The position numbers were made by a program, and so were the translations under genes. Of a stretch of 64,000 bases of DNA, positions 10,874 to 63,488 are shown piece after piece. Source of the DNA: Bacteroidales bacterium (GTDB lineage: Bacteria; Bacteroidota; Bacteroidia; Bacteroidales; FEN-979); assembly GCA_025355465.1 (NCBI GenBank), contig JANXZO010000058.1, positions 6,164 through 70,163 of the forward strand, given 5' to 3'. The notes under the pieces are model-generated. The model was not told the origin of the DNA. It worked only from the letters and a program-made list of their open reading frames with translations, and searched no databases. Every line of letters begins with the position of its first letter. Within the stretch, counting starts at the first letter, position 1.

Positions 10874-10885
10874 GATGAAAATTAG

Positions 10886-15178: not shown

Positions 15179-15335
15179 ATTCTTACATTGTGGCTCACAA
15201 ATATACGATATACGGCTCACTTTTATCTGCCAATGAGCTAAATTTCTTTAAAAATGAGCCATAACGCCCGACTACTAAACTTATCAAAGGCAGCTTAATC
15301 AGCCACAATCATTTCGAAATTAAGAAACGCCTGCC

Positions 15336-16133: not shown

Positions 16134-16185
16134 TTTGACAGATTTTCAATTTTATAAGGTTGCAATCCGGTTTACCTGTTTTGCT

Positions 16186-16650: not shown

Positions 16651-16825
16651 TTTCTTCCTTTTAGTATTATTACATCCAGCGACAAACGGTAGTTTTACGA
16701 ATGCGATTTCTTCACCAGCTTATATCATAAATGAGTCGTCAGGTCTGACGGTATCACTTCTACGATTTGCCGAAACACCACCCATTGGATTTTTAGGACT
16801 TCTGTTATCTCCTGCAAAAAAACCG

Positions 16826-22014: not shown

Positions 22015-22836
22015 TTATGGCGTGACGGTGACGGACAGGGAGGTCATCGCAGAGACGCCGAAGAATCCGGTGGCTCCTGCACTCAGATTGGTTGCCACAT
22101 TCGCCGGCGCCGAATTAAAGAATCCGCCGCTCCAGCTTGTCTCCAGCAACATCTCCCTGATAAACTCCGCATGGGCCGGCGAAAGTGAGTAACGGCGCTC
22201 TTCAATAATGGTTCCTGCCGGAAATGAGATGGCCTCCATGGCAGGAGCAAAGATCTCGCTTACGTCCAGTGTTGGCAGGGTATAGAACAGCATCCTTGCC
22301 TGGCACAGGGCAGTGTCTGTTTTTTCGTAGCCCGGAACTTTCGACCAGTCGATCAAAAGTTCCCACATGGCTGGTTTTTCGGAATTGAATGCGCTTGCTA
22401 CAAAGTCGACATGATAACGGTCATCGCCGCTGTTCTTTACCCACCTCAGGGCTGCGAATTCAGATCCCGGGACCATAGAAGCCTGCGCCGAATAAATTTG
22501 CTTGTTTGCCGAAACAAAAAGTGAATAGGTTTGTCCGGTTACGGCAATGAAGGAGGGGGCCGTATGGTATTTGCCCGACCCGGCCGGCGCTTCTGTTAGC
22601 AGCCACGATGAATCCACGCCGGAGATGCGCACCACCGCTCCTGTTACCGGCTCCGGAACTGCATTGAGTGCGGTTACCGGATAGGTGAGGGTGATGGTCT
22701 GGGTACCGCGGTGGTCGATGATGGTTCCGTCGACGATCACCAGGCGCTGAGGCGGACCGTCAGTCGGCCAGTTCACCTGTTTTTCACAGCCGGCCACCGC
22801 CATCAGCAGGAGGATATATTTCGCTACTCTTTTCAT
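22015..22836 (-). CDS. DUF4249-family lipoprotein (partner of the TonB-dependent receptor)
   Basis: 273 aa with the signal MKRVAKYILLLMAVAGC, LVIVDGTI, a GKYH..GQTYSLFV pattern and a C-terminal GATGFFGV motif. Its start overlaps the receptor stop by 1 nt (TGATG). Confidence 0.65.
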   Translation of the reverse strand: MKRVAKYILLLMAVAGCEKQVNWPTDGPPQRLVIVDGTIIDHRGTQTITLTYPVTALNAVPEPVTGAVVRISGVDSSWLLTEAPAGSGKYHTAPSFIAVTGQTYSLFVSANKQIYSAQASMVPGSEFAALRWVKNSGDDRYHVDFVASAFNSEKPAMWELLIDWSKVPGYEKTDTALCQARMLFYTLPTLDVSEIFAPAMEAISFPAGTIIEERRYSLSPAHAEFIREMLLETSWSGGFFNSAPANVATNLSAGATGFFGVSAMTSLSVTVTP

Positions 22837-25505: not shown

Positions 25506-25518
25506 CAGCCCGACGCGT

Positions 25519-26526
25519 TTAATTGCATCCGTTGCCCGAAATTTCGAATCCGGAGCCGGTGTTACTGATCTGCAGGTCGAGCGTGGCTTTGAGAACATTC
25601 AATACAGACTCCAGGGATTGTTTGTCAAAGGTAGCAGTTATCCTGCAACTGCCGGGGTTATTCTGCTTCAGCCGGATGGGCCGATGGTAAGCCGCCGACA
25701 GGGTTGCCAGCGCCTGGCTGAGGGGGGTGTTGACAAACACAAAGTGCAGGGTCTTCCACGACATGTAGTTGGGGTCTTCATTCACCGACTTGCTGATACC
25801 GGAAAAGTCGGCAGGGATTTCAGCCTTTTCACCCGGATCAAGGATTACCTGACCGGGTGTCTGCTCCTTAAAGTAAACGGATACCTTTCCGGAGGTAAGC
25901 ACCACCTCCATCGTTCCCCGGAGCGCCTTCGTATTTACGTTGAACTGTGTTCCCAGCACCTTCACGCGCACCTCACCGCAGGAGACAATGAACGGCATAT
26001 CTTCATTGCGGGTTACCTTGAAATAGCCTTCACCAGACAGCTTCACCTCGCGGGTGGAGCCTTTGAATTTTTCGGGGTATGCCAGGGTGGAGCCTGCGTT
26101 AAGGGTGATACCGGAGCCGTCGGGAAGGATGATTTCACGAACACTATTTTCGGCGGTGACCTGAACCATGGGTGCGGCGGCAAAATGGCGGTAGATGAAG
26201 AATGTCGGGATGAGGAGCAGGAGGATGAGGGCGGCGATGCGGAAAGCACCCACCCAACCTCCCCTGAACGGGAGCGGGATGATAGATGGCGAATGGCTTG
26301 TTGCCACCTTGCCCTGGATTTTTTTCCACTCGGCATCAACGTCAGTCCGGGTTTCGATCTTTTCGCGCTGAAGCAGCGACCAGGTCCGGGAATGCTCCTC
26401 AAAAATCTTTGTATGGGCAGCATCGGCGCTGACCCACGCCTCCAGGAAACGGATATCATCTTCCGATGCCTCTCCACTGAAGTAGCTCGTAATCAGATCG
26501 ATATAATATGTTTCGTTGATTTCCAT
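25519..26526 (-). CDS. FecR-family anti-sigma factor / transmembrane sensor
   Basis: The likely start is MEINETYYIDLITSYFSGEASEDD at 26526. It has a single TM segment (FRIAALILLLLIPTFFIY) and a FecR domain (ITLNAGSTL..VKLSGEGYFKV). Confidence 0.85.
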   Translation of the reverse strand: MEINETYYIDLITSYFSGEASEDDIRFLEAWVSADAAHTKIFEEHSRTWSLLQREKIETRTDVDAEWKKIQGKVATSHSPSIIPLPFRGGWVGAFRIAALILLLLIPTFFIYRHFAAAPMVQVTAENSVREIILPDGSGITLNAGSTLAYPEKFKGSTREVKLSGEGYFKVTRNEDMPFIVSCGEVRVKVLGTQFNVNTKALRGTMEVVLTSGKVSVYFKEQTPGQVILDPGEKAEIPADFSGISKSVNEDPNYMSWKTLHFVFVNTPLSQALATLSAAYHRPIRLKQNNPGSCRITATFDKQSLESVLNVLKATLDLQISNTGSGFEISGNGCN

Positions 26527-26610
26527 AACGTTTAACCGCCTATAATACACATGAAATAACCCCCACCCTTATCTGACATCATATTATTTTTCAAAGCCCA
26601 AGCGATGATT

Positions 26611-26675
26611 GATTTACGATTTTAGATGTACGATTTACGATTTTGTGCATTTGTGCATTCGTGCATTCGTGCATT
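26611..26675. repeat. Word array: ACGATTT units followed by four GTGCATT units
   Basis: The sequence is gatttacgattttagatgtacgatttacgatttt + gtgcatt tgtgcatt cgtgcatt cgtgcatt. It occupies much of the 147-nt sigma-to-FecR spacer and overlaps the sigma stop codon. Confidence 0.9.
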
Positions 26676-27219
26676 ATCTCAAAAGCATAATCACCACAAC
26701 ACTAAGGTACTCTCCGAGTCTGTTTCGCATGTGCTGAAGCGCCTTCGACATCTGGGCTTCCACTGTTTTTACAGAGATCTGAAGTCTGTCTGCGATCTCC
26801 TGGTACTTCAGGTTTTCCGAGCGGCTCAACACGAATATCTCCCTGCATTTTTCGGGGAGTTCACCGATTGAACCGGTAATTTTCTCCCGGATATCGGCTT
26901 CCACGAGCCTGTCGGGCTGTTCGTAGTAATCGTTGCCGGGGAGTTGTTCCAGGTCCAGCAGATCATGGCTGAACTTTTTATGGTCGCGGAGGTAGTTGAG
27001 GCAGCGGTTGCGCACTGCGGTGGCAAGATAGCTCTTTACCGGTTTTGACAGGTCAATGCGCTCCCTCTTCTCCCATAGGTTAAGAAAGGCCTCCTGAACG
27101 ATCTCACGGGCTGCTTCACCGTCTTTAACATAGGTAACGGCAAAATGGATCAGCCCTTTGAAGTGGTTTCTGAAAAGTTCTTCAAAGGCAATCTCATCAA
27201 GAAACCGCGGGGTCTCCAT
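26674..27219 (-). CDS. ECF-type RNA polymerase sigma-70 family factor
   Basis: 181 aa with region 2 (VQEAFLNLWEKRE) and a region 4 HTH (LKYQEIADRLQISVKTVEAQMSKAL). Confidence 0.88.
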   Translation of the reverse strand: METPRFLDEIAFEELFRNHFKGLIHFAVTYVKDGEAAREIVQEAFLNLWEKRERIDLSKPVKSYLATAVRNRCLNYLRDHKKFSHDLLDLEQLPGNDYYEQPDRLVEADIREKITGSIGELPEKCREIFVLSRSENLKYQEIADRLQISVKTVEAQMSKALQHMRNRLGEYLSVVVIMLLR

Positions 27220-38682: not shown

Positions 38683-39150
38683 ATGATCTCAAAATCAGTC
38701 AGAAAAAAAATGATCGCCGGGCGAACTGCCAAGGAGGAGAGTTTCGGCCGTCAGATCTATTATCTCTATCGTTTCATGGTTGTGTGGAATGAGAACATGT
38801 GGCCGAAAATCGATGGTCTTCACCTTGGACCCAGCCATATCCATTTGCTCTTCACCATTGGGCTCGATGGTGTTTCGAACAGCGAGATGGCCCGTCGGGC
38901 GAAGGTTTCAAAGCAGGCCATGAGCAAACTGGTGCAGGAGATCCTGAAGTACGGGCTCATCGAAATAACCGTGAACGACCAGGACAGCCGGTGCAACATC
39001 ATCACCCTTACTGATAAGGGAGCCGGAGTGCTGGTAAAAATATGGGATGCAAACAAGAAGATGGCGGAAGCGTTTGAAAACCGCATCGGGAAGGTCAAAG
39101 CCAAACGGTTACTGACCCTGATGGCCGAACTGGTGGAGGCGCTGGAATAG
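38683..39150 (+). CDS. MarR-family transcriptional regulator
   Basis: 155 aa with a winged HTH (NSEMARRAKVSKQAMSKLVQEILKYGLIE..DQDSRCNIITLTDKG), divergent from the efflux operon. The start could be a downstream Met. Confidence 0.82.
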   Translation: MISKSVRKKMIAGRTAKEESFGRQIYYLYRFMVVWNENMWPKIDGLHLGPSHIHLLFTIGLDGVSNSEMARRAKVSKQAMSKLVQEILKYGLIEITVNDQDSRCNIITLTDKGAGVLVKIWDANKKMAEAFENRIGKVKAKRLLTLMAELVEALE

Positions 39151-39155
39151 CAGCC

Positions 39156-40427
39156 TTATGCTGCCGGCTTGTCGGGAAGGGTAAAATAGAATGTCGCCCC
39201 TTCGCCCACTTTGCCGTCAGCCCAGATCCTGCCGCCATGCCGTTCGAGGACCCTGCGCACCGTAGCCAGTCCGACGCCGATCCCCGGAAATTCCTGGTTG
39301 GTGTGAAGTCGCTCGAAAGGGTTGAACATCTTGTAACTTTTAGCCGGATCGAAACCGGCTCCGTTATCCTTTACAAAATAGACCGTTTCGCCTTTCTCCT
39401 CCTTTTTTCCTACAAAGATCACTGGAAAATCCGTTTTCCGGGTATATTTCCAGGCATTGCTCAGAAGGTTCTCCATCACAATCTCCATGAGACGATGATC
39501 GGCTGTTACCAATAAATTATCGGCTGCCTTGCATTCAATGGTACGGCCGTATTCACGCATCCTCAGATTCTCAAATATCTCTCTGGCTACCCGGGTCAGA
39601 TCGACCTGTTTCAGCTCCATCGGTGCATTTGCCGAACGGGAGAAATTAAGAAGGTCCTCCACGAGTTGTGCCATCGATTTGGTGGCGTCAAGTATGGTGG
39701 AAAGATACTCCTTCGCCGAATCATCCAGCGCCACTCCGTATTCGTCAATCAACAGGCGCACATATCCTCCGATGGTGTGCAGGGGGGAGCGCAGATCATG
39801 CGAAACGGTATGGGCAAACGCCTCCAGCTCGCGATTGGCCGACAGCAGTTCCTCATTTGAAGCTTCCAGTTGGGCCTGGGTGAGAATAAGCTCATCGTTG
39901 CGCTGAACGGCGGCTTCATATACCGACAGCAACAAATCGAGGATCTGTTTCTTGTCGGAATTGATCGAATATTTGTTCCCCTTGAAAATGACCTCGATGA
40001 GCATGTCGGCACCGCCCGCATGGCGCAACGCCCGGTTTGCGAGCAGGTACTGTATTCTCGAGAGAAGATACTGATCTTCGTAAGGTTTGGTGATAAAATT
40101 GTCGGCGCCCGCCTGCAACCCCCTGATAATGTCCAGTGGATCGCGCAGCGAAGTAAGCAAAATAAAAGGCACCTCCCGGAGCTCGCTGTCGCTTTTAAAC
40201 CGTGTGCAAAGCTCATACCCGTCCATCTCCGGCATCACAATATCACTGATAACAAGGAATGGCTTATTCTCAGCCGACACCTTGAGGGCATCGATACCGT
40301 TGATGCTTATGCGGACTTCAAAGCCATTCTCCTCCAATAAAAATTTCAGCTTCTTGGCCTGCACATTCGAATCTTCAACAACAAGCACGTAACCTGATCG
40401 CTGATTTAAATTGAAAAAATTACTCAT
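39156..40427 (-). CDS. Hybrid response-regulator receiver / histidine kinase (REC-HisKA-HATPase_c)
   Basis: 423 aa. REC domain: VLVVEDS, phospho-acceptor LVISDIVMPEMDG, and ITKP. H-box: FAHTVSHDLRSPLHTIGGY. ATPase boxes: LLSNAWKYT, DNGAGF, GIGVGL. It is the last gene of the che-like operon, 10 nt after cheB. Confidence 0.88.
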   Translation of the reverse strand: MSNFFNLNQRSGYVLVVEDSNVQAKKLKFLLEENGFEVRISINGIDALKVSAENKPFLVISDIVMPEMDGYELCTRFKSDSELREVPFILLTSLRDPLDIIRGLQAGADNFITKPYEDQYLLSRIQYLLANRALRHAGGADMLIEVIFKGNKYSINSDKKQILDLLLSVYEAAVQRNDELILTQAQLEASNEELLSANRELEAFAHTVSHDLRSPLHTIGGYVRLLIDEYGVALDDSAKEYLSTILDATKSMAQLVEDLLNFSRSANAPMELKQVDLTRVAREIFENLRMREYGRTIECKAADNLLVTADHRLMEIVMENLLSNAWKYTRKTDFPVIFVGKKEEKGETVYFVKDNGAGFDPAKSYKMFNPFERLHTNQEFPGIGVGLATVRRVLERHGGRIWADGKVGEGATFYFTLPDKPAA

Positions 40428-40437
40428 GGTGGTTAGA

Positions 40438-41505
40438 TTAAGTATGAAGGTAGTTAAGTAATGTTTCTGCTATTTTTCCTGAAGGCAGGAGGTGACAAAC
40501 CGCCCCGATCCGACAGGCTTCGCCGGGCATTCCAAACACAAGCGACGACTTCTCGTCCTGTGCAATGGTGATGCTTCCTGCATCTTTCATCGATTTGAGC
40601 TCCACGGCTCCATCACGGCCCATGCCCGACAGCAGGATGCCCAGTGCATTCCGTCCATACACCTGCCGTACCGAACGGAAGAGAAATGAAACCGAAGGTC
40701 TGAGCCCCCCTTCCGGGGGTTCCTGGGTAACCCGTATCCGCTTATCCCTCCCAACCGAAAGGTGATGATTGCCCGGCGCCATGTGAATTCTGCCGGCAAC
40801 AGGGGTATCTCCGTTATTGGAAATGCTGACCGGTATTCCGGTGCGGCTGGTCAGCCATTCGGCAAAACCACTGGCGAAACCTGCATCGATGTGCTGAACC
40901 AGCAATACAGGTACCGGCAATCGTCCATCCATCCGGCGGAACAACTCCACCAACGCCTCCGGCCCTCCGGCCGATGCGCCAATGGCGATCATGGTGACCG
41001 GCTGATGCGGCAGCAACAACGGCACGCCAATGCATGGAACGGGAGGTGCAGCAACAGCTCCTGCCCCATCCACCCGAAGGTGGGTTCGCCTCACCACACG
41101 AACCTCCGACATGGCCTTGATGGTAGAACAAAATTTCTTTACCGATTTTTCAAAATCCGGAGAACCCGGACCCGGAGGCTTTGGCAGAATGGCCACGGCA
41201 CCCGCCTCCAACGCCCGGAACGACTGGGCCGTTTCGGAGGAGGAATAATTTCCGCTGACAATCACGATGGGGATGGCATACTGTTTCAACACGGCGGCGG
41301 TTGTTTCAAAACCATCCATGCCGGGCATGTTGATATCCATCGTGATCACGTCGGGAATATGGTGTTTGAGGAAATTCAGCCCGGTGTTACCATCCGGGGC
41401 GGTGCCGATAACTTCGATGCCCGGATCGGTACCGAAGATCATCCCCAGGAGGTTCCTCGCCACAAAGCTGTCATCCACGACCAGTACCGTGACCTTTTTT
41501 TCCAT
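40438..41505 (-). CDS. cheB: Protein-glutamate methylesterase CheB (REC + methylesterase)
   Basis: 355 aa with a REC domain (VLVVDDS..DVITMDINMPGMDG) and a catalytic domain (IAIGASAGGPEAL, VQHI, LSGMGRDG). Confidence 0.9.
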   Translation of the reverse strand: MEKKVTVLVVDDSFVARNLLGMIFGTDPGIEVIGTAPDGNTGLNFLKHHIPDVITMDINMPGMDGFETTAAVLKQYAIPIVIVSGNYSSSETAQSFRALEAGAVAILPKPPGPGSPDFEKSVKKFCSTIKAMSEVRVVRRTHLRVDGAGAVAAPPVPCIGVPLLLPHQPVTMIAIGASAGGPEALVELFRRMDGRLPVPVLLVQHIDAGFASGFAEWLTSRTGIPVSISNNGDTPVAGRIHMAPGNHHLSVGRDKRIRVTQEPPEGGLRPSVSFLFRSVRQVYGRNALGILLSGMGRDGAVELKSMKDAGSITIAQDEKSSLVFGMPGEACRIGAVCHLLPSGKIAETLLNYLHT

Positions 41506-41517
41506 CTTTTGCCGTTC

Positions 41518-43722
41518 TCAGATCAACCGCCCTATCACTTCAAGGAGGTTGCTCTGTTCGAAATTACTCTTTACAATGTAGGCATTCGCACCGCAATCCA
41601 TCCCGCGCTGTCGGTCGCCGACCGATTCGAGGGCCGTGACCAGGATCACCGGCAGATCGCTGAAACAACTGTCTTCCCGTATCTTCGTTATGAGTTCAAA
41701 TCCGTTCATGTTCGGCATCTCCACATCGGATACCACCAGGTCGAACTCCCCGTTTTTCAGATGCATGAACGCTTCCAGTCCGTCGACGGCTGTCTTTACT
41801 ATAAATCCCGACGATTCGAGGATGTTCCTGAGCAGCGACCGGGCTGTTATCGAGTCTTCTGCAACCAGGATGTGCCGCTGCCTTTCACCGGCTTCCGGAT
41901 CATCTTTCACAGCATCGCCGGAAGAGATCGTCTCCCGTTTTCCGAAACCGGTCTCCAGCAGGTCGGGAACATTCAGTATGGGAACAACCCTTCCGTTTCC
42001 GAGAATGGTGGCCCCGGTGATGCTTCTGGCGTTTTTGAGCACGCCGCCCGGGTTTTTCACAATACCCTCCTCCTCCTCCAGTATCTCGTCCACCAGGAAG
42101 GCGATCCGGTGAGCGCCTGAGGCGAGGATGAGCGCGTGGTCAAGCCCTCCGGCGGATTTTCCCTGGCGCCTGACGGGGATATCCAGCAACTGTCCGAGGT
42201 GTTTCACCGGAACCGGCACTCCCGCAACCATGATCACCTTCTGGTCCTCGATGCTGGTCAGCGCCTCTTTGTCAATGCGGATGGCCTTTTCGATGAAGTT
42301 ATCCGGGACGAGGAAAAAATGGTCGCTGAGGCGAATGAGAATACCACGGAAAGTTGCCAGTTTCAGTGGCAGCCTGATAAAAAAAACGGTCCCATTTCCC
42401 GGCTCCGATTCAATGGTAAGGTCTCCTCCGAGCAGGTTCACCTTCTCCGCCACAATGGCCAGCCCGAGTCCACGCCCCGACAAATCGGTAATAAACCGGC
42501 TGGTGGAGATGCCCGACAGCAAAGCCAGGTTAAATACCTCCCTGTCGCTGAGGGCTTCCCCCTTTTCGCGGGTCATGAATCCATTCTGCAAGGCAGCTTC
42601 AAGTATGTTTTTCCGGTTCATCCCGGCGCCATCGTCGCGGATCTCGATTTCGATGTAACGATCCATTTTAGTCACCGAAACCAGCAGTGTGCCGGTGGAA
42701 GGCTTGCCATTTTTCAACCGTGTTGCCGGCAGTTCAATGCCGTGGTCGATACAGTTTCTCACCAGATGGATAAACGGATCTTTCACCTCCTCCAGCACCC
42801 GGCGGTCGATCTCGGTTTCGCCACCCGCAATGGTAAGACTTACCTGTTTTCCCTGGTCATGGCTGAGATCGCGTACCATCTTCGGCAGCAGATCCAGCAC
42901 AGACGAAAAGGGAAAAAGAAGCGTACCCCGGATGGAGGCGAGAAGATCATCGATCATCCGGGTGGAGTTCCGCTTCAGCAGGTCGAGATTGGCTGAGAGT
43001 TCCTCAAGTTTTTTCACGGTACTGTTAACCTCTTCGCTGCCGGCAATGGTGGCTTTCCCTTTTAACTCCCTGCGGATCTGTCTGACCAGCTTAACATTGT
43101 ATGCCAACTCACTCTTTACCGGCACAAACTCTTCGGTCCGCAACAGGAGATCGGCCAGCTTTTCGACCGAAACACGCACGGTTTCACGGGTTCCCGGGAT
43201 GGATAAACCCACTTCTGCCGGCTTGTGACCAGATTCGGGCTGATGTGCTGCAGGATCAGCGGAGGCCTCCGCTGCAGCCTGCTCCGCTGCCGGTTTTGTG
43301 TTACCTGTGTCGTGGCTCCGGATCGATTGCAGCGCCCCGATGATTTTGACAGTCTGCTCACCGCGAACGGACCTGTTGCCGGTTTTAACATCCGAAAGCA
43401 TGCTGTTAAGCACATCCATGGCCTGGTGAACAGTATCGAAAAACAGCGGGGTGGTTTCGATGGTTTGCTCCTTCAGCCGCGAAAACACTGACTCCAGCGA
43501 CTGGCAAACCCGTTCAACCTCCACAAGACTCACCGCCCTGGCAGCGCCTTTGAGGCTGTGCATCTCGCGGTAAGCCTGCTCGATCGACTTTTTGAACACC
43601 GCCTCCGGGGGATCCTTCTCCAGCCCGATGATGCAGTTTACGATGGCCACGTAATGCTCCTCCGCCTCAACCTGGAAGTCGTTGAGAAGTTCTCTCAGAA
43701 ACTTTTCCTGCTTCTTGTCCAT
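41518..43722 (-). CDS. cheA: Chemotaxis histidine kinase CheA with C-terminal receiver (Hpt-dimerisation-HATPase-CheW-REC)
   Basis: 734 aa. Hpt: MHSLKGAARAV. ATPase: HLVRNCIDHGIE, RDDGAGM, GRGLGL. It also has a CheW-like domain and a C-terminal REC (ILVAEDS..DLVVSDVEMPNMNG). Confidence 0.9.
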   Translation of the reverse strand: MDKKQEKFLRELLNDFQVEAEEHYVAIVNCIIGLEKDPPEAVFKKSIEQAYREMHSLKGAARAVSLVEVERVCQSLESVFSRLKEQTIETTPLFFDTVHQAMDVLNSMLSDVKTGNRSVRGEQTVKIIGALQSIRSHDTGNTKPAAEQAAAEASADPAAHQPESGHKPAEVGLSIPGTRETVRVSVEKLADLLLRTEEFVPVKSELAYNVKLVRQIRRELKGKATIAGSEEVNSTVKKLEELSANLDLLKRNSTRMIDDLLASIRGTLLFPFSSVLDLLPKMVRDLSHDQGKQVSLTIAGGETEIDRRVLEEVKDPFIHLVRNCIDHGIELPATRLKNGKPSTGTLLVSVTKMDRYIEIEIRDDGAGMNRKNILEAALQNGFMTREKGEALSDREVFNLALLSGISTSRFITDLSGRGLGLAIVAEKVNLLGGDLTIESEPGNGTVFFIRLPLKLATFRGILIRLSDHFFLVPDNFIEKAIRIDKEALTSIEDQKVIMVAGVPVPVKHLGQLLDIPVRRQGKSAGGLDHALILASGAHRIAFLVDEILEEEEGIVKNPGGVLKNARSITGATILGNGRVVPILNVPDLLETGFGKRETISSGDAVKDDPEAGERQRHILVAEDSITARSLLRNILESSGFIVKTAVDGLEAFMHLKNGEFDLVVSDVEMPNMNGFELITKIREDSCFSDLPVILVTALESVGDRQRGMDCGANAYIVKSNFEQSNLLEVIGRLI

Positions 43723-43736
43723 GGTTTACAGCCCTT

Positions 43737-45227
43737 TCAGGCGTTGAATTTTCCGGCCATGGCCTTAAGGTTTTTGCCCAGGTCGTTCAGGTTGTTGGCG
43801 GCTACCTGCGTTTGTTTTGTTCCGATCACGTTCTGTTCGCTGGCCTGGCGTATGTTCTCCATGGCAGGTACAATCTGGTTCATGCCGGCCATCTGCTGCT
43901 GGCTCGACGAGGATATCTGCATGGCCGACTGTGCTGCATCGCTTACCGACTCGGCCAGCAGGTCAATAACATCGCCGCTTTTCTCGGCCAGCTTCTTTCC
44001 CGACTCCACCGCCTTCATCCCCTGTTCGGTAGCCATTACTGCCTGGTTCACCGATTTCTGGATTTCATTCAGGATCTCCCTTACCTGCGTTGTAGCCTGT
44101 TTCGATTGTTCCGCCAGACTCCTGATCTCCTGTGCCACGATGGTGAAGCCGCGTCCCTGGTCGCCGGCTTTGGCAGCCTCGATGGCCGCGTTTACGGCCA
44201 GCAGGTTCGACTGATCGGCAAGGTCGTTCACCGTGGCAGTGATCTCACCGATGGAGCGGCTTTGTTCACTTAACCGGATCACTGAATTCGACACGAGGTT
44301 CATCTGCTGGTCGATGCGGTTCATCCCTTCGATGGTCTCCTCTACCGCCTTTTTACCGTCGCCCGACACCTGGGTTGCCTTTTGTGCACTTTCAAGTACC
44401 GAGCCGGCTTTTTGGCTCGATAGCTGCGCGGTCTGCCTCACCTCCTCGATGGTTGTGGTGGTTTCTGCCACCGCTGTGGCCGTCTCGGTAGCGCCTGTTG
44501 ACACCTCGGTGGCCGTGGTAAGGATTTCGGCAGCAGAGGTGCTTAACACGGCAATGCCTTCATTGATTTCCGAAGTGATGGTGCGGATCATCCGGATCAT
44601 GGATGCAACCATGAGGAAGCACAAGGCAATGGCGGCGAAACCCAGAATGATGACCAGCCATTGGTTTCGGTTAGCAACCTTAGCCGAATGAGCCATCAGG
44701 CTGGCCGTTGTGATGTTCTCCCCCTTGTCGAGGTCGCTCAGATGCGTTAGAATGGTATTGTAAAGCGTGGAATGACTGCCGCCTGAGAATGCGATGGCCT
44801 CTGCACGCTTTCCCTCTTTGATGAGCCTGAATATCTTATTCCTGTTTTCTCGGTATTCGCTGAGTTTCTGCTTCACCTCGGCAAGTTTGGCAGCTTTTGC
44901 CGGATCTGCACTAAAATAGCGCGTAATCCTGGCGATGAGGGTATCGTTTTCGGGGCCCTGGTTCACGATCTCCTTTTGCAGTGCCTCGTGTTCTGCCAGG
45001 TCGTCAGAAAGAAGGATATTATATACCAGGGCATGATTTCGGTTCCGGTTGGCCCTTAATTCCGAGAGGTAGTGGTTGACCTGAAAAGTAGCAGCCAGGT
45101 TTTTCTGTGCCTGGCTCATCTCCGACATGCTGTAATAGGAAACCAGGATGACAACCAGGAATAACAGGATGATGATGGCGGCGCCTGTGTAAAGTTTGAA
45201 CCTGAAGCTGAAACGGGATGATGTCAT
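43737..45227 (-). CDS. Methyl-accepting chemotaxis protein, 2-TM with a periplasmic four-helix-bundle-like sensor
   Basis: 496 aa. TM1 is [14 protein letters not shown] and TM2 is [19 protein letters not shown]. The signalling hairpin reads [36 protein letters not shown]. Confidence 0.9.
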
Positions 45228-45251
45228 AATTTTTCCTCCTTTTTACAATTA

Positions 45252-45782
45252 TTATTTGGAAACCATTTTTTCAAAATTCAACAACTTTTCTCCATCCAGC
45301 AGCATCAGTCCGGTGGATGTAATTCCCCTGATAAACTCTGTACCAGGCAGTTGTAGCGTGACTGGCAATGGCATAAATCCGGAAAGCGGTTGCACGGAGT
45401 TGCCAGCGATTCCATCGGTAAGAACCCCCAGGATGTTACCGGAGGCATGCAGGATGATGATCTTTGTTTCGGCGGTAAGACCCTTGTCGGGCATGCTGAA
45501 GAGGCGTTTCAGGTCGGCCACCGGGAAGAGCTGACCCCGCAGGTTCGAAATTCCGACAATGCAGGAGGGTGCCCCGGGAACCTTGGCCAGCTCTGTCAGC
45601 AGGGCGGTCTCCAGAAGGTAGGCAATTTCAATGCAGTAAAGTTCGGCGGCAAGCCTGAAACTTACCACACGGATCTGCTCCCCTGCTTCAGCCGGCGATA
45701 TTACAGCTGCCCTGGCAAGATCGCGGGCACGTCTTTCCAGAATTGCATCCGCCTGTGCTGTGCTCATAACCAGTTCATCCAT
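45252..45782 (-). CDS. cheW: CheW-like coupling protein
   Basis: 176 aa, CheW fold (VVSFRLAAELYCIEIAYLLE..IVGISNLRGQLFPVADLK). Confidence 0.85.
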   Translation of the reverse strand: MDELVMSTAQADAILERRARDLARAAVISPAEAGEQIRVVSFRLAAELYCIEIAYLLETALLTELAKVPGAPSCIVGISNLRGQLFPVADLKRLFSMPDKGLTAETKIIILHASGNILGVLTDGIAGNSVQPLSGFMPLPVTLQLPGTEFIRGITSTGLMLLDGEKLLNFEKMVSK

Positions 45783-45818
45783 GTTGTTCGCGAGATGTTT
45801 TCATTGGTGAACCCTGAA

Positions 45819-47108
45819 TTATTTCATCGAATTTACAATTTCTTTTAATCTTCCGGCAGTCATTCCCTCCGATCCCGGAATTATTTCTTCATCCTTATAT
45901 ACCGCCAGCAACTCTTTTACATTCCGGTAATGCCTTTTCGATTTTGTCTCCTTGCCCAGCATGGCGGCAATTCTGCCCATCAGAAAATGTGAAAGCAAAT
46001 GCGACGGGTCGAGGTACAAGGCTTTCTGCAAGGCCTGTTCCGCCGCTTCCGGAAGGTTGTTCTCGTGGGCCATGGCTGCCTGGGTATAAAAGGAGGCGGC
46101 ATTGATGGGCTCGCTGATGGGCGGCGCATCTTTCACAGCCGGTTTTGCAGGTTGCCGCCTGATGACTTCCGGTCCGGAGGATGAGGGCTTCAACGGTTTT
46201 TTCCGGGGGACCGGCAATGGCGGAACGGTATGGAATTCGGTTGGCCGTTGCGGTGGTGCCGGCAACCCTTTCCGGTAGAGGGTGAGTCCGTCGATGACCA
46301 CCGGGGTGAAAAGGCCGAAAACCGGCTGGGAGACCTCCACCGGACTGGTAATTATCCACCCGTTATCCGCCAGGGATCTGTGAAATCGCCCGGCAACACC
46401 GGCGGCTATTTCTGTGGAAAAGTACATCAGCACATTCCGGCAGAATATGACATCCTGTCGGCTGAGCGAACTGGCAGTTACAGGGTCCGCGTCCATCACC
46501 AGGTTCAGCGGCAGGAAGGTCACCATTTTCCGGATCGCGGGACTAATTTCAAAATTATTGCCCCGTTTGGTGAAATAGCGCGCTGTCTGTTCTTTTGTGT
46601 TGTCTCTGAGCGACCAGGAGGTATAGATTCCCCGTTTTGCCTTTTCGAGGAACAGCAGATTCAGATCGGTGGCCATGATCCGGATGTTCCAGGCACCGGG
46701 GTCGGGCAGGAGTTCGGTAAGGATCATCGCGATGGTGTAGGGCTCCTCCCCGCTGCAGCAACCTGCACTCCAGATGCGAAGCGTTCTGTCGCCGGAACTT
46801 CGTTCATCCAGCAACGGCTTGAGAATATGGTCGCGGAACACATTCAGGGTCGGCATGTCGCGGAAAAAGAAAGTCTCCCCGGTGGTAAGGTTCGAAATCA
46901 GCGTTTCACTTTGGGCGGCAGTCATCTCCTGCCGTTCGATCAAACGGACGAGTTCACACAAGTCGCAGGGAAGTCCAAGCTCCTTTGCTGTGTTAAGCAG
47001 CGCCTTTTGCAGGTTTCCCAGGTTCGCCCCGGTGAAGAAGATCCCGTATCTTGCGGCAATGAGCTCTCCGGCCCGCGCTGTTGCATTATGCAGTGAATTT
47101 TCTGTCAT
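45819..47108 (-). CDS. cheR: CheR-type protein-glutamate O-methyltransferase with C-terminal TPR region
   Basis: 429 aa with TGETFFFRD and the SAM motif LRIWSAGCCSGEEPYT. A Pro-rich linker is followed by a TPR-like tail (AEQALQKALYLDPSHLLSHFLMGRI). Confidence 0.9.
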   Translation of the reverse strand: MTENSLHNATARAGELIAARYGIFFTGANLGNLQKALLNTAKELGLPCDLCELVRLIERQEMTAAQSETLISNLTTGETFFFRDMPTLNVFRDHILKPLLDERSSGDRTLRIWSAGCCSGEEPYTIAMILTELLPDPGAWNIRIMATDLNLLFLEKAKRGIYTSWSLRDNTKEQTARYFTKRGNNFEISPAIRKMVTFLPLNLVMDADPVTASSLSRQDVIFCRNVLMYFSTEIAAGVAGRFHRSLADNGWIITSPVEVSQPVFGLFTPVVIDGLTLYRKGLPAPPQRPTEFHTVPPLPVPRKKPLKPSSSGPEVIRRQPAKPAVKDAPPISEPINAASFYTQAAMAHENNLPEAAEQALQKALYLDPSHLLSHFLMGRIAAMLGKETKSKRHYRNVKELLAVYKDEEIIPGSEGMTAGRLKEIVNSMK

Positions 47109-47569
47109 CCTGCCTTCGGCGGGTTAAAAATGGCAGCCAGCGCATGGGCGTCGTACAGCGGAAAAAACTTTTCGAGGTCGTAAATGAGCACCAGTCCGTC
47201 ATTCCGTTTAAGAACTCCGTCTGCCTCAATACCGGCAACAAGTTCTTCAGACCGGGTAAAATCATCCATGCGGAACCGGTCAATTTCCGACACCTCGTCG
47301 GCAACGAAGGCAAACCTTTGCTTCGGGAGGCTGATGATGACAAAACGGTCGTCTGGCACAACCTGTTTAAGCGGCAGACCAAGCCGCGCCCGGAGGTTGA
47401 TCACCGGGACTATTTCACCATGGATATTGATAACCCCATGAACAATCGCAGGGGCATTGGGCACCGTGGTTACCTTCACCGCCCGGATGACCCGCTCAAC
47501 CGGCGCCAGGGCGATGGCCAGCATGAGGTGGGCGCAGTTGAAGATCAAAAGATGATCGTTGGCTAGCAT
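47105..47569 (-). CDS. cheW: CheW-like coupling protein (first gene of the operon)
   Basis: 154 aa with VHGVINIHGEIVPVINLR. Its stop overlaps the cheR start by 4 nt. Confidence 0.85.
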   Translation of the reverse strand: MLANDHLLIFNCAHLMLAIALAPVERVIRAVKVTTVPNAPAIVHGVINIHGEIVPVINLRARLGLPLKQVVPDDRFVIISLPKQRFAFVADEVSEIDRFRMDDFTRSEELVAGIEADGVLKRNDGLVLIYDLEKFFPLYDAHALAAIFNPPKAG

Positions 47570-47653
47570 GATCGCGGATTTGAATACGAATATAGGTCAA
47601 GTTTTTACATGAACCATAAAACGTTCGGAAAATAGCTTTGGCGAAACAGGGAA

Positions 47654-47986
47654 ATGGTGAAAATATTCCTATCTTCGTCAACCAATCCATTCACCGTGCC
47701 CAATTTTTCAACCATCCGCCGGACTATCCGCTATGCCGGCACACTCCTTTTCGTGGCCATGAACCTCTTTCCTCCGTGGAGTGCAGCCATCGACCCGCCG
47801 AAGTATATGGAGAAGATCCCTCTCGGGTGCCATTTTATTGCCTATCCGCCGCAGAGTCCGTTTGGGTACCAGTCGTATATTGTGATCGACTTCCCACGGC
47901 TCATCCTTGAGTGGGTGGTGTTTTTCGCCATCATGCTGGTCATTTATTATGCCGCGGAACCGGTGATAAAGCGGTTTCAGAAGTAA
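47654..47986 (+). CDS. Hypothetical small membrane protein
   Basis: 110-aa ORF with two hydrophobic segments (AGTLLFVAMNLFPPW, WVVFFAIMLVIYY). No recognised domain, and the start is uncertain. Confidence 0.35.
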   Translation: MVKIFLSSSTNPFTVPNFSTIRRTIRYAGTLLFVAMNLFPPWSAAIDPPKYMEKIPLGCHFIAYPPQSPFGYQSYIVIDFPRLILEWVVFFAIMLVIYYAAEPVIKRFQK

Positions 47987-47995: not shown

Positions 47996-48247
47996 CTATC
48001 CAGCGGGCACTTCCGGCTCCTCCTCCTCCCTGTTTTTCGCCTTTCTTGCCTGGTACAACTTCTTGCCGCCGTACAATGCACCCATGGCCAAAAGAATACC
48101 AAGTCCGCCATCGATGGGGGCGCCTACGGGGGGACCACCCGTTCCTGAATTGCCTGTTGCTCCTCCCAAGGGAGGCGGTGGTGGATCGGCAGACCCGTTA
48201 AACGCAAAGAATCCAATGAACGCAAGTGATAACAGTATTTTTTTCAT
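47996..48247 (-). CDS. Small secreted Pro/Gly-rich protein with a PEP-CTERM-like (PID..TM..basic) C-terminal signal
   Basis: 83 aa. Signal peptide MKKILLSLAFIGFFAFNGSA, then a low-complexity region DPPPPPLGGATGNSGTGGPPVGA, then PIDGG-LGILLAMGALYGG-KKLYQARKAKNR, then an acidic tail. Confidence 0.6.
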   Translation of the reverse strand: MKKILLSLAFIGFFAFNGSADPPPPPLGGATGNSGTGGPPVGAPIDGGLGILLAMGALYGGKKLYQARKAKNREEEEPEVPAG

Positions 48248-48274: not shown

Positions 48275-49729
48275 TTAGTTGACAAACACTTTTCGTGATT
48301 TTACCCCATTCTCCGTCACCAGGGAGACCAGGTAGGTCCCGGTGGTTCCATTCACAGGAATGGTCATGATTCCGGGCGATTGAAGTTGTTGCCGGAAGAT
48401 ACATTGGCCAATGATGTTATAAACGGAAACCGTACCATTCAGGGCGACGGGGGTTTTGAGGTAGATGATTTTATCCTTAGCATATGTGGACACACCTGCC
48501 AGTTCATTCTCTTCAATTCCCACGGTGGAGAATAAAAGATTGAACCTGTTGCTGAACTCACCTTTTGTCGATTGAAAAGTGTAAACAGGATTTTGCCTCA
48601 GGTTGATCTTCGCTCCGGTAACCTTATCTTCCAGGAAGATGGGTGTGTTAAAAGGGAACGATTCCATTCCTTCAGCGGTAAAGGTATACCCCGCATCCGC
48701 CCCTGCTTTGAATCCCAGCGGGATCACCGGCGACTCCTGCGGGGAGGTTCGTGCATCGATAGATAAAATGGGGTTGCCTGCTGTGAAAAGTTCCGGGGCG
48801 GTTGCATCTCCGCGAAGCTTGTACGCATCATAATCCGGATCAAATCCGGCAGTCGCCCTGGAATCGAAATAGACAAACAACTTGTCAGAGTAAGTATTTG
48901 CATCGGTGGTTACTGCCAATGTGAGCAGGTTGCTCAACTGCGTGGATTTATAATACAATAATGAGGCGCTGTGAACCCTTGCGGCATTGGTAAACGTCAA
49001 CGTGGGTGAACTGGTTACCTGCACAAAAAATCCTTGTCCGCTGGGAATTATTCCTCCAGTAAGACCGCCGGGTCCATCTACATATGATTTCCAGTTGGCT
49101 GTAGCAGCATTCCAGACATACACAGAGGCTAATAATCCTGATTTTGTCAACGCATCCCAGCTGATGGCCGAGGGATAGGGATTTCCTACCATATTCCATC
49201 CATCTCCTCCGGGATTTGCAGTTTGAGTCAAAGATGAACCTATTGCAAGGTCTCCTGTTCCAAGTGTCCCGGTAAAGTTGGCCGTTGTGGAACTGATACC
49301 GCTCAGGAACACCGTGTAACCCTTTCCCTGCGTAATGGATTCTGAATAAATATGGTTTGTGTAGGTGTTTGTGGCTTCGGTATAATCACGAACCCAGATG
49401 TTGCTCTGGTTTGTCGGGAAAACGGTTCCAAGGTCTACGGATACAACCGATGGCGAAAAAATATGATATTCTGCGTCCCCGCTGAGGTATCGCTCTACTG
49501 TTTGAGTTCCGCCAAATGTCACATTCGCACCTGTCGCATTCTGGTCGAGGAATGAGCCTGTTCCGTTAACATCCGATTTTACCGTGATGCCTGCCGTTCC
49601 GGTGGCCGTGAGTTTCGCCCCATTCTGAACTGTGATCATTCCACCGGGTTGGATGGTGATGCCTTGACCGAAAAAAAGTTGGGGACTACCAATTATGGCT
49701 AAAATTGTAATTAACGTTTTTATTTTCAT
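48275..49729 (-). CDS. T9SS C-terminal-target-domain protein (function unknown)
   Basis: 484 aa with a signal peptide (MKIKTLITILAIIGSPQLFFGQ) and a Por-type tail (VSVYNIIGQCIFRQQL..GTYLVSLVTENGVKSRKVFVN). Confidence 0.8.
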   Translation of the reverse strand: MKIKTLITILAIIGSPQLFFGQGITIQPGGMITVQNGAKLTATGTAGITVKSDVNGTGSFLDQNATGANVTFGGTQTVERYLSGDAEYHIFSPSVVSVDLGTVFPTNQSNIWVRDYTEATNTYTNHIYSESITQGKGYTVFLSGISSTTANFTGTLGTGDLAIGSSLTQTANPGGDGWNMVGNPYPSAISWDALTKSGLLASVYVWNAATANWKSYVDGPGGLTGGIIPSGQGFFVQVTSSPTLTFTNAARVHSASLLYYKSTQLSNLLTLAVTTDANTYSDKLFVYFDSRATAGFDPDYDAYKLRGDATAPELFTAGNPILSIDARTSPQESPVIPLGFKAGADAGYTFTAEGMESFPFNTPIFLEDKVTGAKINLRQNPVYTFQSTKGEFSNRFNLLFSTVGIEENELAGVSTYAKDKIIYLKTPVALNGTVSVYNIIGQCIFRQQLQSPGIMTIPVNGTTGTYLVSLVTENGVKSRKVFVN

Positions 49730-55615: not shown

Positions 55616-56167
55616 TTAGCGTACAACAAGTTTTTGCAGCCTACCGTAATTTCCGTCACCGGCAACCAGCATGCTGTAGGTATTCTGTACCATGAGATAG
55701 TCGCCACCCACCTCCACCACCATCACCTCTTTACCATACCGCGACACCATATCGTTCATGTTGTTTGCCAGGTCGTTGATGGTCGTTTTGTAATCGGAAC
55801 CCAGCCAAAAGGGATAGTAAGACAAACCGATGATGTCGTACCGCATTCCCATCTGCTTTGCCCTCAGCGCCATCGTCACCACCTCCTTTTTGCTGCAATG
55901 ACCGTTGATCTTATCGCTGCCGGGATTCACAAATACACGCAACCTCACTGTGTTGATGCCGTGATCCTGAAGGATTTGCAAACATCCGGACTGAACCCCG
56001 GTAGTGTCGTAAAATTTATACCCCGTAGCCTCCATCTGCTCGAGCCACCCGATGTCGGCGCCACGAACAAACTGCGCCCTGACCGGCAACGCGATACCCA
56101 GTGCGAAAGCCAAACCACAAACCACCAGAGCGTGGCGAACTCCGAAAGAACATTGACACCCAAACAT
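55616..56167 (-). pseudogene. GH53 (arabinogalactan endo-beta-1,4-galactanase)-like gene with a large internal deletion
   Basis: The sequence FVRGADIGWLEQMEATGYKFYD..ILQDHGINTVRLRVFVNP..AKQMGMRY runs directly into DIIGLSYYPFWLGS..VVEVG. The central barrel segment expected between these motifs is missing. Confidence 0.45.
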
Positions 56168-60491: not shown

Positions 60492-63488
60492 CTATTCGAC
60501 CGTAAACCGCGTGATAAAAATGCGGGTGTCATTTTTCAGTTTCAGGAGATAAACGCCACGGGTTAGTCCGCGGGTGTCGACCTGCTGAATACTGACTCCT
60601 GGCAAATCTTCGAAGGTTTCGCCGAGTACACTTCTTCCACTGAGATCGGTTACCTCCATCACAAGTCTCTTTTCGACACCGCTTATGGCGATGTTAAGGT
60701 CTCCATGAACCGGGTTGGGATAGATCCTGATCTCTGCCTGAAGTTTCTGCTGGTCGACTCCGGTGCAAACAACCACGGTCACAAGGCGTGAACTGCTGCT
60801 TCCGGTACCGCAGAAGTTGTTTCCTGCAGCGGTGATTGTACCCGTAACCGACGAGGGTCCGAATTCAACCTGGATGGCATTGGTCCCCTGGCCCTGGGTG
60901 ATGGTCGCCCCGACAGGCAGGGTCCATACATAGGATGAAGCGTTGGAAATTACCGGTATACTAAACTGGTAGCCCCCTTGCGCCTGGCAGACCGTATCCG
61001 GTCCCTGAATGGCCTGGGCATTGCCGGGTAGGGTCTCTATGGCAACATTCAGTGTGGCGGCTCCGCTGATGCAAAGGCCGGCCTGTGCGTTAACCGTGAC
61101 AAGGCCTGCATTGTTTCCCCATTGTACGTTGATGGTTGCGGTTCCCTGCCCGGAGGTGATCGATGCCCCGGTTGGTACTGTCCAGTTGTTGATTTCACCG
61201 GCGATAACAGGAACGCTGTAACTAACCGCGGAGCCGGTGCAAACGACCGTGGGACCACTGATGGGACCCGGCGTTGACGGGGTGCTGGCAAGCACTACCG
61301 CCAGCTGACTGGCCGCACTTGTACCGCAGTTGTTTCCGGCTGTTACGGTCACGTTTCCGGAGGTCATTCCCCACTGAACGCCAGCGGAAACGGAACCTTG
61401 GCCGGAGACAATGGTCGCCCCGGCAGGCACTGTCCAGGTGTAGTTTGTGGCCCCGGCAACAGGTGCAATGCTGTAATATTCAGTGGCTCCCATGCATGGG
61501 GTGGCGTTGCCCGAGATGGTACCGGGTACCGCCGGCACGGTGGATACCGTTACCATCACACTGTCCTTGGCAACATGGGCGGCATTGTCGTGCAGGGTGC
61601 AGATATACCGTGTGTTGACGGTTGGGTTTGCCGTAGGATTGGGCAGCGTGGAGTTGAATCCGGCCGGGTTTGAAGTCCAGGTATAGGTATACGGACTGAC
61701 CCCGTTGCTGGCGGTGGCCTGAAGCTGCGTGGTGGCTCCTGAACAGACCGGATTCGGTGTTGCGGAAACAGTGACTGTCATGGATTGCGTTGGCAACACT
61801 GTGATGGTCGCATTCCGCTGGTGAACCGGGGTGCCGTTGGGTCCTTTGGCAAAGAACGATGCCTGGTAGGTTGTCAGCGGTACGTTGCCTGCTAATTTCA
61901 CACGAACGATTTTAGACCCCGGAAAGGCTGTGATCTGGCTCCCCTGCGGAAAACTAAAGGTGATGGTTCCCGTTGCAGGCACCGGCGTGATCTGGCCGCT
62001 GAGGAAAACTGAATCGGTATAAAGTTTCACGCCGGGGATGCTGACCACGAAATCGGCGCTGTCACTATTCACATACAAGGTGTCGGTGTTATGGTTGATC
62101 GCCATGGCGAAATCCGGGAAATAGGCGGTGGCGCTCATGAAACTTCCCGCGCGGAAATCTGTCCAGCCCACCATACCCACTTTTTTATTGGAGATGACGC
62201 CGTTGTAGTCGCCTTGGTAACGCGGTGTTCCGCCACCGCCGCAGGTCGGACAGTCGATCTTCATTTTCTGGTTTGAGACGGCCTGGTTGGCAGCCCAGGT
62301 AACGCCGCCATTGTCGGAATAGGAGGCGTAGATGAGGGCGCTGTCGTTGGTCGGACAGTTGCGTGTATCCATCCACATGGCATACAGCCGTCCTGTTTGT
62401 TTGTCGCACCAGATGGCAGGATGCCACTGGTTATGCGTTTGCGGTGTTGGATCGTCGTTCACCAGGATCGGGGATGACCAGGTAGTTCCGCCATCGGTGG
62501 AGTAACGGCACCAGATGTCCGGTTTATTAAGATCCCCCGGGGGATCGTTGGATGCATAGACACAATAAAGCCGACCGCGGCTCGACGCGTAACTGTTGTC
62601 GGCAGCAATCATCGGGTAAGGCCGTGTACGCATGTTCTGAACCGAATTACGGCCATTCACCTGCGTCCCCACGGTGTTTGAGAAACTTTGCGTCGACATC
62701 AGACTGAACGTAAGTCCGCCGTCGGTGGAACGGTAAAAGGTGTACACCGAGTTAAAGGAGCTTCCGCTGTTGGTAACCACATAAACCGCCTTGCCCTGGA
62801 TATTGCTGTTCGGACCAACACAGGTCATCATCCCGGGGATGCTCTGCGTGGTGGGGCTGAACGTGGTGGTAAAGGTTGTTCCATGATCGGTACTGCGGGC
62901 AAAATTCCCACCCGGACCGCCGGTCATGCAAACATAAACGTTATTGGCGTTCGGGCCACTTGTCTGGTCACAGGCCATCCAGTTCTTGTCATTTCCGGCT
63001 ACTGCTGTAACAGCTGCCCCCCAGGTAGCGCCGTTGTCGGTCGATTTCATCACTTTAACCCCGGCAATCGAAGTTCCGTACATGTTCTCGTAGAAGAGGT
63101 TTCCAAGGCTGTCGTAGGCAACCACAGGGTCACCCTGCATGGATGCCCCAAAGGAGGGACTTGCATCTGCCCAGTTCAGACCATTTTCGGTATGGTGAAC
63201 AGTATTGGTGTTGTAGGCCGTAAAATACCAGGCCGGGTTCAGCGGATTCTCAGCCATGTTGCTCTCGCCGAAGTCGGTGCCAAGGTTAAAATTATCGAAG
63301 TTGTTGACAGTGATCACCGTCGATAATGGAAGTCGGGGCGTATTTGACGCGGCTTCACGCAGGTAAACCGGAATCTGGTCAAGATTTGGATTATCAATAT
63401 ATTGGGCGTGAAGTGACGGAGATGAGAGCAGTGCGATGAATATCATCACCACAGCCGTCGAAAGGCTTAAACGGGAAAATCGGGACAT
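60492..63488 (-). CDS. T9SS-secreted BNR/sialidase-like beta-propeller protein with four Ig/PKD-like repeats and a Por C-terminal tail
   Basis: 998 aa intact with the signal MSRFSRLSLSTAVVMIFIALLSSPSLHA. BNR motifs: STDNGATW, STDHGTTF, STDGGLTF, STDGGTTW, SDNGGVTW. Repeats of the form ISGxxxVCxGxxxxYSxPxxxGAxxYxWTxPxGAxIxxGQGTxxIxVxxG are present, and the tail reads IRIYPNPVHGDLNI..GVYLLKLKNDTRIFITRFTVE. Confidence 0.85.
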   Translation of the reverse strand: MSRFSRLSLSTAVVMIFIALLSSPSLHAQYIDNPNLDQIPVYLREAASNTPRLPLSTVITVNNFDNFNLGTDFGESNMAENPLNPAWYFTAYNTNTVHHTENGLNWADASPSFGASMQGDPVVAYDSLGNLFYENMYGTSIAGVKVMKSTDNGATWGAAVTAVAGNDKNWMACDQTSGPNANNVYVCMTGGPGGNFARSTDHGTTFTTTFSPTTQSIPGMMTCVGPNSNIQGKAVYVVTNSGSSFNSVYTFYRSTDGGLTFSLMSTQSFSNTVGTQVNGRNSVQNMRTRPYPMIAADNSYASSRGRLYCVYASNDPPGDLNKPDIWCRYSTDGGTTWSSPILVNDDPTPQTHNQWHPAIWCDKQTGRLYAMWMDTRNCPTNDSALIYASYSDNGGVTWAANQAVSNQKMKIDCPTCGGGGTPRYQGDYNGVISNKKVGMVGWTDFRAGSFMSATAYFPDFAMAINHNTDTLYVNSDSADFVVSIPGVKLYTDSVFLSGQITPVPATGTITFSFPQGSQITAFPGSKIVRVKLAGNVPLTTYQASFFAKGPNGTPVHQRNATITVLPTQSMTVTVSATPNPVCSGATTQLQATASNGVSPYTYTWTSNPAGFNSTLPNPTANPTVNTRYICTLHDNAAHVAKDSVMVTVSTVPAVPGTISGNATPCMGATEYYSIAPVAGATNYTWTVPAGATIVSGQGSVSAGVQWGMTSGNVTVTAGNNCGTSAASQLAVVLASTPSTPGPISGPTVVCTGSAVSYSVPVIAGEINNWTVPTGASITSGQGTATINVQWGNNAGLVTVNAQAGLCISGAATLNVAIETLPGNAQAIQGPDTVCQAQGGYQFSIPVISNASSYVWTLPVGATITQGQGTNAIQVEFGPSSVTGTITAAGNNFCGTGSSSSRLVTVVVCTGVDQQKLQAEIRIYPNPVHGDLNIAISGVEKRLVMEVTDLSGRSVLGETFEDLPGVSIQQVDTRGLTRGVYLLKLKNDTRIFITRFTVE

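Follow-up and report, generated by a model that had tools for sequence, protein, structure and literature searches.

A chemosensory operon of probable ACF class in a Bacteroidales genome, with a receiver-histidine kinase as its likely output

Within a 64,000-nucleotide stretch of a Bacteroidales genome (GenBank assembly GCA_025355465.1, contig JANXZO010000058.1; hereafter the window), seven minus-strand open reading frames (ORFs) running from 47569 down to 39156 encode a complete set of chemosensory proteins, ending in a protein that joins a receiver domain (REC) to a histidine kinase (REC-HK). We consider it likely that these genes form a non-flagellar chemosensory operon in the class named for alternative cellular functions (ACF), of the Wsp type, whose output is the terminal REC-HK and whose signal would pass along the relay set out below. 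An earlier note on this DNA had listed the seven genes with one 4-nt overlap and gaps of 36, 24, 14, 12 and 10 nt, which the ORF coordinates reproduce exactly.

The genes follow the order cheW, cheR, cheW, mcp, cheA, cheB, REC-HK. The first, cheW-1 (47105-47569, minus strand as all seven; 154 aa; Pfam CheW, E 2.9e-24), has an orthologue in 44 related loci, and its stop overlaps the start of cheR (45819-47108; 429 aa; Pfam CheR, E 1.5e-45) over positions 47105-47108. These are followed by cheW-2 (45252-45782; 176 aa; Pfam CheW, E 4.1e-23), the gene for a methyl-accepting chemotaxis protein (MCP; 43737-45227; 496 aa; Pfam 4HB_MCP_1, E 3e-17, and MCPsignal, E 3.6e-37), cheA-REC (41518-43722; 734 aa; Pfam Hpt, HATPase_c, CheW and Response_reg), cheB (40438-41505; 355 aa; Pfam Response_reg and CheB_methylest, E 3.6e-55) and the REC-HK gene (39156-40427; 423 aa; Pfam Response_reg, HisKA and HATPase_c). 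NCBIfam assignments agree with Pfam across the operon. All seven entries of the part list given in the earlier note are thus borne out by Pfam, except that the TPR part ascribed to CheR is represented by weak, sub-threshold matches.

In the window the operon is a discrete unit. On its upstream side a 110-aa ORF (47654-47986, plus strand) starts 85 nt from cheW-1, and the divergent intergenic region between them (47570-47653) is presumed, from the ORF layout alone, to hold the operon promoter. Neither sequence reading nor a sigma-70 scan gave a convincing promoter motif in this region. The sigma-70 promoter scan (12 against 6.8 +/- 2.6 in shuffled sequence) and the terminator scan (16 against 11.6 +/- 3.6) were not clearly above background; because they do not model Bacteroidota promoters, they were used solely to note the absence of a clear signal. 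On the downstream side a MarR-family gene outside the system (Pfam; 38683-39150, plus strand) is convergent and ends 5 nt from the REC-HK stop, with HlyD-MFS-OEP efflux genes beyond it (Pfam). This MarR neighbour is kept in no related locus except L001, which is the same contig in a separate assembly.

The terminal REC-HK has the phospho-acceptor and catalytic residues of a receiver and a kinase: D62, T92 and K114 in the REC, H210 in the DHp domain, and intact N, G1 and G2 boxes in the CA domain. Invariant columns were read from alignments of 15 and 120 sequences. Across the 120 homologues all of these positions are unchanged, and so is a family-specific linker motif consisting of F148, I155-x-S157 and K160-Q-I-L-D-L-L-L-S168. 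In the AlphaFold2 model (mean predicted local distance difference test score 77.8), the linker motif begins a long helix into the DHp domain, after a low-confidence beta-hairpin. No PAS or other Pfam domain was found between REC and HisKA at E<=5, and Pfam gave no GGDEF domain in the protein. The H-box reads H-D-L-R-S-P-L, a type that, as in EnvZ-type HisKA kinases, goes with bifunctional kinase/phosphatase activity.

Conservation of the locus ties this kinase to the chemosensory genes. We scanned one genome per species, found 300 stretches with a REC-HK relative, retrieved 79 loci and compared them by tblastn and ORF clustering. The best REC-HK match came from an uncultured Prolixibacteraceae metagenome-assembled genome (MAG; 78% identity). 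The REC-HK gene lies immediately downstream of cheB in 55 of the 79 loci, at a median distance of about 6 nt, and the complete order cheW-cheR-cheW-mcp-cheA-cheB-REC-HK is identical in 35. An order found again in 35 independent loci is far from anything that chance would give. The earlier placement of the REC-HK as a member of the operon is upheld. In a neighbour-joining tree, the che-linked REC-HKs, including that of the window, form a clade apart from a clade of orphan paralogues, with one exception. Carriers of the operon are dozens of species-level genomes, mostly labelled as Bacteroidales or Prolixibacteraceae-like MAGs, together with the cultured strain Schleiferia thermophila DSM 21410.

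The orphan REC-HK clade (L035, L037, L039-L041, L043, L045-L048, L054, L058, L060 and L072) has a neighbourhood of its own. Its members stand directly 3' of gap, the GAPDH gene, at about 10001-11260 in full-length loci and with no che genes, in a conserved setting of pyrG, yidC, sdaA and PEP-synthase-like genes (named by sequence reading). They are 50-53% identical to the window REC-HK and carry the same, invariant linker motif; several MAGs hold both paralogues. In some Prolixibacteraceae-like genomes (L003, L004 and L036, about 300-11260; L006, L007 and L018) the che operon itself occurs in the gap neighbourhood, in the order gap, orphan REC-HK, sdaA, cheW to cheB, REC-HK. L007 has the che operon directly after gap, and L018 has a che-clade REC-HK there without che genes. 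These variants suggest local duplication, insertion or deletion of che genes. Just upstream of cheW-1, eight loci (L021, L022, L025, L028, L029, L034, L044 and L063) have a hybrid kinase gene in the same direction. Its product, of about 750 aa and read from the sequence as REC-PAS-PAS-HisKA-HATPase-REC, resembles the large PAS kinase upstream of che2 in Sinorhizobium meliloti. The window lacks it.

CheA comprises a single Hpt domain (H55), a linker, a weak P3, a HATPase (P4), a CheW-like P5 as its single CheW domain and a C-terminal receiver (D666). The H-kinase_dim (P3) match in Pfam is weak; P3 to P5 together match CheA structures in the PDB at E 1e-62. No P2 domain was matched in Pfam at E<=5. 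H55 is present in 51 of 52 orthologues and D666 in all 52. In CheB, the receiver aspartate D57 and the methylesterase residues S178, H205 and D298 are invariant in 58 of 58 orthologues, and the protein matches NCBIfam CheB subfamily models. CheR consists of a SAM-dependent methyltransferase, a proline-rich linker and a short, weak TPR; its orthologues are longer, with a median of 490 aa against 429 aa in the window.

The dedicated MCP has two hydrophobic segments, at about 13-33 and 189-211, from which we read a topology with two transmembrane (TM) helices: TM1, a periplasmic four-helix bundle, TM2 and a signalling domain. A HAMP domain was not matched in Pfam even at E<=5. The hairpin tip lies at D356 with about 140 aa, or 20 heptads, per arm, and putative methylation sites include E261, which is invariant, and Q443, present in 47 of 52 orthologues. 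The earlier note had left the heptad class to be assigned. The MCP aligns with S. meliloti McpS over 270 aa at 45.6% identity with zero gaps; because McpS is a 40H receptor, of the pSymA ACF cluster, we assigned the window MCP to class 40H on this alignment.

The ACF assignment, for which we used the scheme of Wuichet & Zhulin (2010) as restated in later papers citing it, is supported by four lines of evidence: architecture, plasmid matches, a census entry, and the different CheAs of other Bacteroidota. As to architecture, MCP, CheA and CheW are encoded contiguously, and the last gene encodes a multidomain REC-fused output in place of a single-domain CheY. By tblastn, no stand-alone REC or CheY-like gene was detected across the 64-kb window, and no CheV, CheZ, CheC or CheD was found with the operon. 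Taken together, a CheA-REC without P2, two CheW proteins, a CheR with a weak TPR, one 40H MCP, a multidomain REC output and the lack of CheY, CheV and CheZ agree with how the literature describes ACF systems. Among plasmids, the best full-length matches of the window CheA are the pSymA-type che2 CheAs of S. meliloti and S. fredii, whose S. meliloti representative is classed as ACF in the literature; matches in many other replicons with che genes came from the same plasmid collection. In the retrieved part of a census based on MiST, cheaACF entries have the architecture Hpt-dim-HATPase-CheW-REC, the same as that of the window CheA. Among the table rows covered, the sole CheA of Schleiferia thermophila (750 aa) is labelled cheaACF. 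A CheA ORF of the same length, 750 aa, lies at 6680-8932 of the S. thermophila locus L067, within an MCP-CheW-CheR-CheW-CheA-CheB-REC-HK order. The other Bacteroidota CheAs retrieved from that census (Cytophagales, Saprospiraceae and Ignavibacteria) are F1 and lack a REC.

Tfp and the REC-bearing F-class systems F3 and F5 were rejected on the single Hpt, the single CheW domain in CheA and the lack of CheV, PilG and PilH. No flagellar or type IV pilus Pfam matches occurred among the scanned ORFs of the window, in agreement with what the earlier note had stated. Its proposal of an ACF-like class likewise gains support from a CheA-REC without P2, the missing CheY, the 40H MCP, the che2 match and the Schleiferia cheaACF entry.

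The scheme that we infer for the stimulus, the target, the phosphotransfer steps and the direction in which the receiver regulates the kinase follows the Che3 model of Rhodospirillum centenum, because its relay from CheA3 to CheS3 is an experimentally tested precedent. There, CheA3 phosphorylates REC1 of CheS3 and so controls the CheS3 kinase output, and the REC of CheA3 itself serves as a sink for phosphate. By analogy, the HAMP-less 40H MCP with two TM helices would use its four-helix bundle to sense a cue from the periplasm or the envelope, and together with the two CheW proteins it would control autophosphorylation of CheA-REC at His55 of the Hpt domain. Phosphate would then pass to the C-terminal REC of CheA itself (D666), probably a sink; to CheB (D57), which with CheR would provide methylation-based adaptation; and to D62 in the REC of the terminal kinase. 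Once phosphorylated, this receiver would switch the HisKA/HATPase module (H210) on or off, and the REC-HK would in this way determine whether a response regulator encoded at another place in the genome is phosphorylated, with a transcriptional or other non-motor output.

Several observations weigh against this scheme or against the class assignment beneath it. No cognate response regulator is present in or next to the window operon, and downstream of the REC-HK no conserved gene or partner regulator was found in the 55 loci, where the genes vary. CheS3 has two RECs and a PAS and finds its substrate, CheY3, within its cluster, whereas the window REC-HK has a single REC, no PAS and no in-cluster substrate. 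The TPR of CheR amounts to about two repeats (aa ~338-389) whose TPR_17, TPR_2 and TPR_1 matches (E 1e-4 to 4e-4) fall below the Pfam gathering scores, next to a weak TIGR02521 TPR match in NCBIfam. Finally, the CheA core is about 35% identical to the ACF CheA of Schleiferia and scores against it (214 bits) much as it does against the F1 CheA of Thermotoga maritima (about 215 bits). As these scores do not separate the classes, the transfer of the ACF label is founded on synteny and architecture and not on CheA similarity or class hidden Markov models.

The same evidence was weighed against other roles for the REC-HK. It could be merely a neighbouring two-component gene outside the chemosensory pathway, for the REC-HisKA-HATPase arrangement is widespread beyond che clusters and the paralogous clade adjoins gap without che genes. 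In tblastn against plasmids, for instance, REC-HKs of Deinococcus and Acaryochloris, known from sequence matches alone, were 32-34% identical to that of the window, a result with no bearing on origin. This reading fails, and is effectively refuted, because of the synteny between cheB and REC-HK and the separate che-linked clade: the two genes adjoin in 55 loci at distances of a few nucleotides while the genes further downstream vary, and in the window they are 10 nt apart and the next gene is convergent. A role within the pathway but without a forward relay is unlikely, though it deserves more credit than the preceding reading. In that case the REC-HK would tune CheA signalling, either by draining phosphate, as a sink or a phosphatase, or by acting back on the CheB REC or the CheA REC as a feedback kinase. 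The absence of a linked partner regulator (0 of 55 loci) is in line with this, as is the H-box type, and there are documented cases of a fused receiver serving as a sink, in CheA3 and in CheAY2 of Helicobacter pylori. A pure sink would have no need of invariant N, G1 and G2 boxes and of H210 across 120 sequences, however, and the orphan clade without che genes implies that the family can work with partners outside a che operon.

We regard it as improbable that the pathway steers surface motility, that is, gliding dependent on the type IX secretion system (T9SS), through a relay from the REC-HK to some regulator of the gliding apparatus. The host, a Bacteroidales/Prolixibacteraceae-like organism, does encode T9SS cargo proteins, and a sensor of temporal gradients would need just such a full CheR/CheB adaptation module, with its conserved putative methylation sites; furthermore, a literature search turned up no chemosensory control of Bacteroidota gliding, which leaves room for it. 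Against it, neither a CheY nor any gld or spr gene was found in the window or in what related loci conserve, and with a kinase as output the relay should be slower and is probably transcriptional. What the ACF systems studied to date regulate is biofilm, cysts or development, not taxis, and the gliding Cytophagales and Saprospiraceae in the retrieved part of the MiST-based census have a different, F1-class CheA. We also give a low chance to a broader arrangement in many Bacteroidales, in which one ACF array would feed a lineage-specific REC-HK family with the KQILDLLLS motif. CheA would then control two of these kinases, one in the che operon and one linked to gap, and through an unlinked regulator a process peculiar to Bacteroidota, for example T9SS and gliding, the envelope or carbon use. 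If true, it would give a Che pathway in Bacteroidota its first functional role.

The usual view of Bacteroidota is that they lack classical chemotaxis. Our literature search for the function of a Che pathway in Bacteroidota, Prolixibacteraceae or Schleiferia brought up no such study, in line with the earlier note. The novelty it implied was overstated, in that both a receiver-kinase output and an ACF CheA in Bacteroidota are already catalogued, the latter in the Schleiferia thermophila entry within the census rows covered. The conceptual gain is small, because ACF pathways with receiver-kinase outputs are known from catalogues and one has been dissected biochemically. Nevertheless, an intact operon whose gene order is kept across dozens of species-level genomes, and which a cultured strain also carries, is a well-defined target for study. 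It offers a way to learn what is regulated by a chemosensory array outside motility in these anaerobes, which are abundant in sediment and freshwater.

The immediate neighbours of the operon are the MarR/efflux unit and hypothetical proteins. The surroundings had been described as dominated by T9SS cargo, which was an overstatement: Pfam gave two clear Por_Secre_tail cargo proteins in the 64 kb (3167-7054 and 60492-63488) and a weak one, a 484-aa protein with a putative T9SS tail (48275-49729). Between the latter and the che operon, an 83-aa secreted protein (47996-48247, minus strand) had no Pfam match at E<=0.001 in the window scan; its counterpart in L001 has a precomputed match to the PID_CTERM sorting domain (PF28310). 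Elsewhere in the window, an ECF sigma factor (26674-27219), a FecR anti-sigma factor (25519-26550), a TonB-dependent receptor with an STN domain (22836-25598) and a DUF4249 protein (22015-22836), all within 22015-27219 on the minus strand, look like a typical Bacteroidota unit for trans-envelope signalling and uptake. Positions 14000-18000 have a low GC content (0.37-0.40 against about 0.50 elsewhere) and hold a Fic-domain gene (14141-15220), a PhzF-like gene and a 247-aa HATPase_c ORF (16826-17569) that also matches the HisKA region by tblastn. The ORF may be a truncated histidine kinase, and the low-GC stretch may be an acquired island. Between 54200 and 56900, where long ORFs are few, a 183-aa ORF (55616-56167, minus strand) aligns with the 340-position GH53 profile over its N-terminal part only, and may be a disrupted glycoside hydrolase gene.

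Among known systems, the Wsp pathway of Pseudomonas aeruginosa shares with the window operon one dedicated MCP, two CheW proteins, a CheR (with a C-terminal TPR that is weak in the window), a CheA with a C-terminal receiver, a CheB, the lack of CheY and, as its last gene, one for an output protein fused to a REC. The wsp genes run wspA (MCP), wspB (CheW), wspC (CheR), wspD (CheW), wspE (CheA), wspF (CheB), wspR, so that the MCP gene, fourth in the window, comes first; among the related loci such an order was seen only in L066 and L067 (S. thermophila). Unlike its Wsp counterpart, the window MCP has no HAMP domain, and the output is a REC-HisKA-HATPase protein instead of the REC-GGDEF diguanylate cyclase WspR. 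With no GGDEF output and another MCP position, the window operon is not a Wsp system in the strict sense, although it would operate much as Wsp and Che3 do.

The che2 cluster of S. meliloti has the same local order cheR-cheW-mcp-cheA(REC)-cheB, and its CheA is 31-32% identical to the window CheA over about 100% of the length. It differs in having one CheW and no 3' REC-HK, with a large PAS kinase and a LuxR-type regulator upstream, and it adjoins Flp/Tad pilus genes. In L081 (S. meliloti pSymA), the interval between the PAS kinase and cheR (3310-4340) shows a REC in one frame and a LuxR-type helix-turn-helix in another, and may hold a response-regulator gene that is either frameshifted or missing from the PLSDB gene table, which is known to be incomplete. 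The Che3 cluster of R. centenum, also of ACF class, likewise pairs a CheA-REC hybrid with a second hybrid kinase that has an N-terminal receiver. The loose comparison with CheS3 in the earlier note was apt, given that the relay from CheA3 to the CheS3 receiver is experimentally known; even so, lacking a PAS and an in-cluster CheY and having a single REC, the window operon is not a CheS3-type cluster.

The closest solved fold to the AlphaFold2 model of the REC-HK is the hybrid kinase LvrB of Leptospira (PDB 8vc9), and LvrA is its top-scoring NCBIfam histidine kinase model. LvrB has the same REC-DHp-CA order; it differs in its low similarity (16-18% identity, TM-scores 0.31-0.36) and in not being che-linked, and the match says nothing about partners. 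The nearest parallel in output architecture is found in the CheR-TPR clusters of proteobacteria such as Methylobacterium extorquens, in which REC-HisKA-HATPase proteins make up about 40% of the regulators and are the commonest output (Munoz-Martinez et al. 2012). The earlier observation that a receiver-kinase occupies the position of WspR is therefore correct, whereas the arrangement is not unusual. 'Bacteroidetes' is absent from the main text of that study and, in the material consulted, occurs once, in a supplementary tally of sequenced genomes. With an output architecture identical to that of the proteobacterial clusters, the Bacteroidota REC-HK family is set apart from them by its own invariant linker motif.

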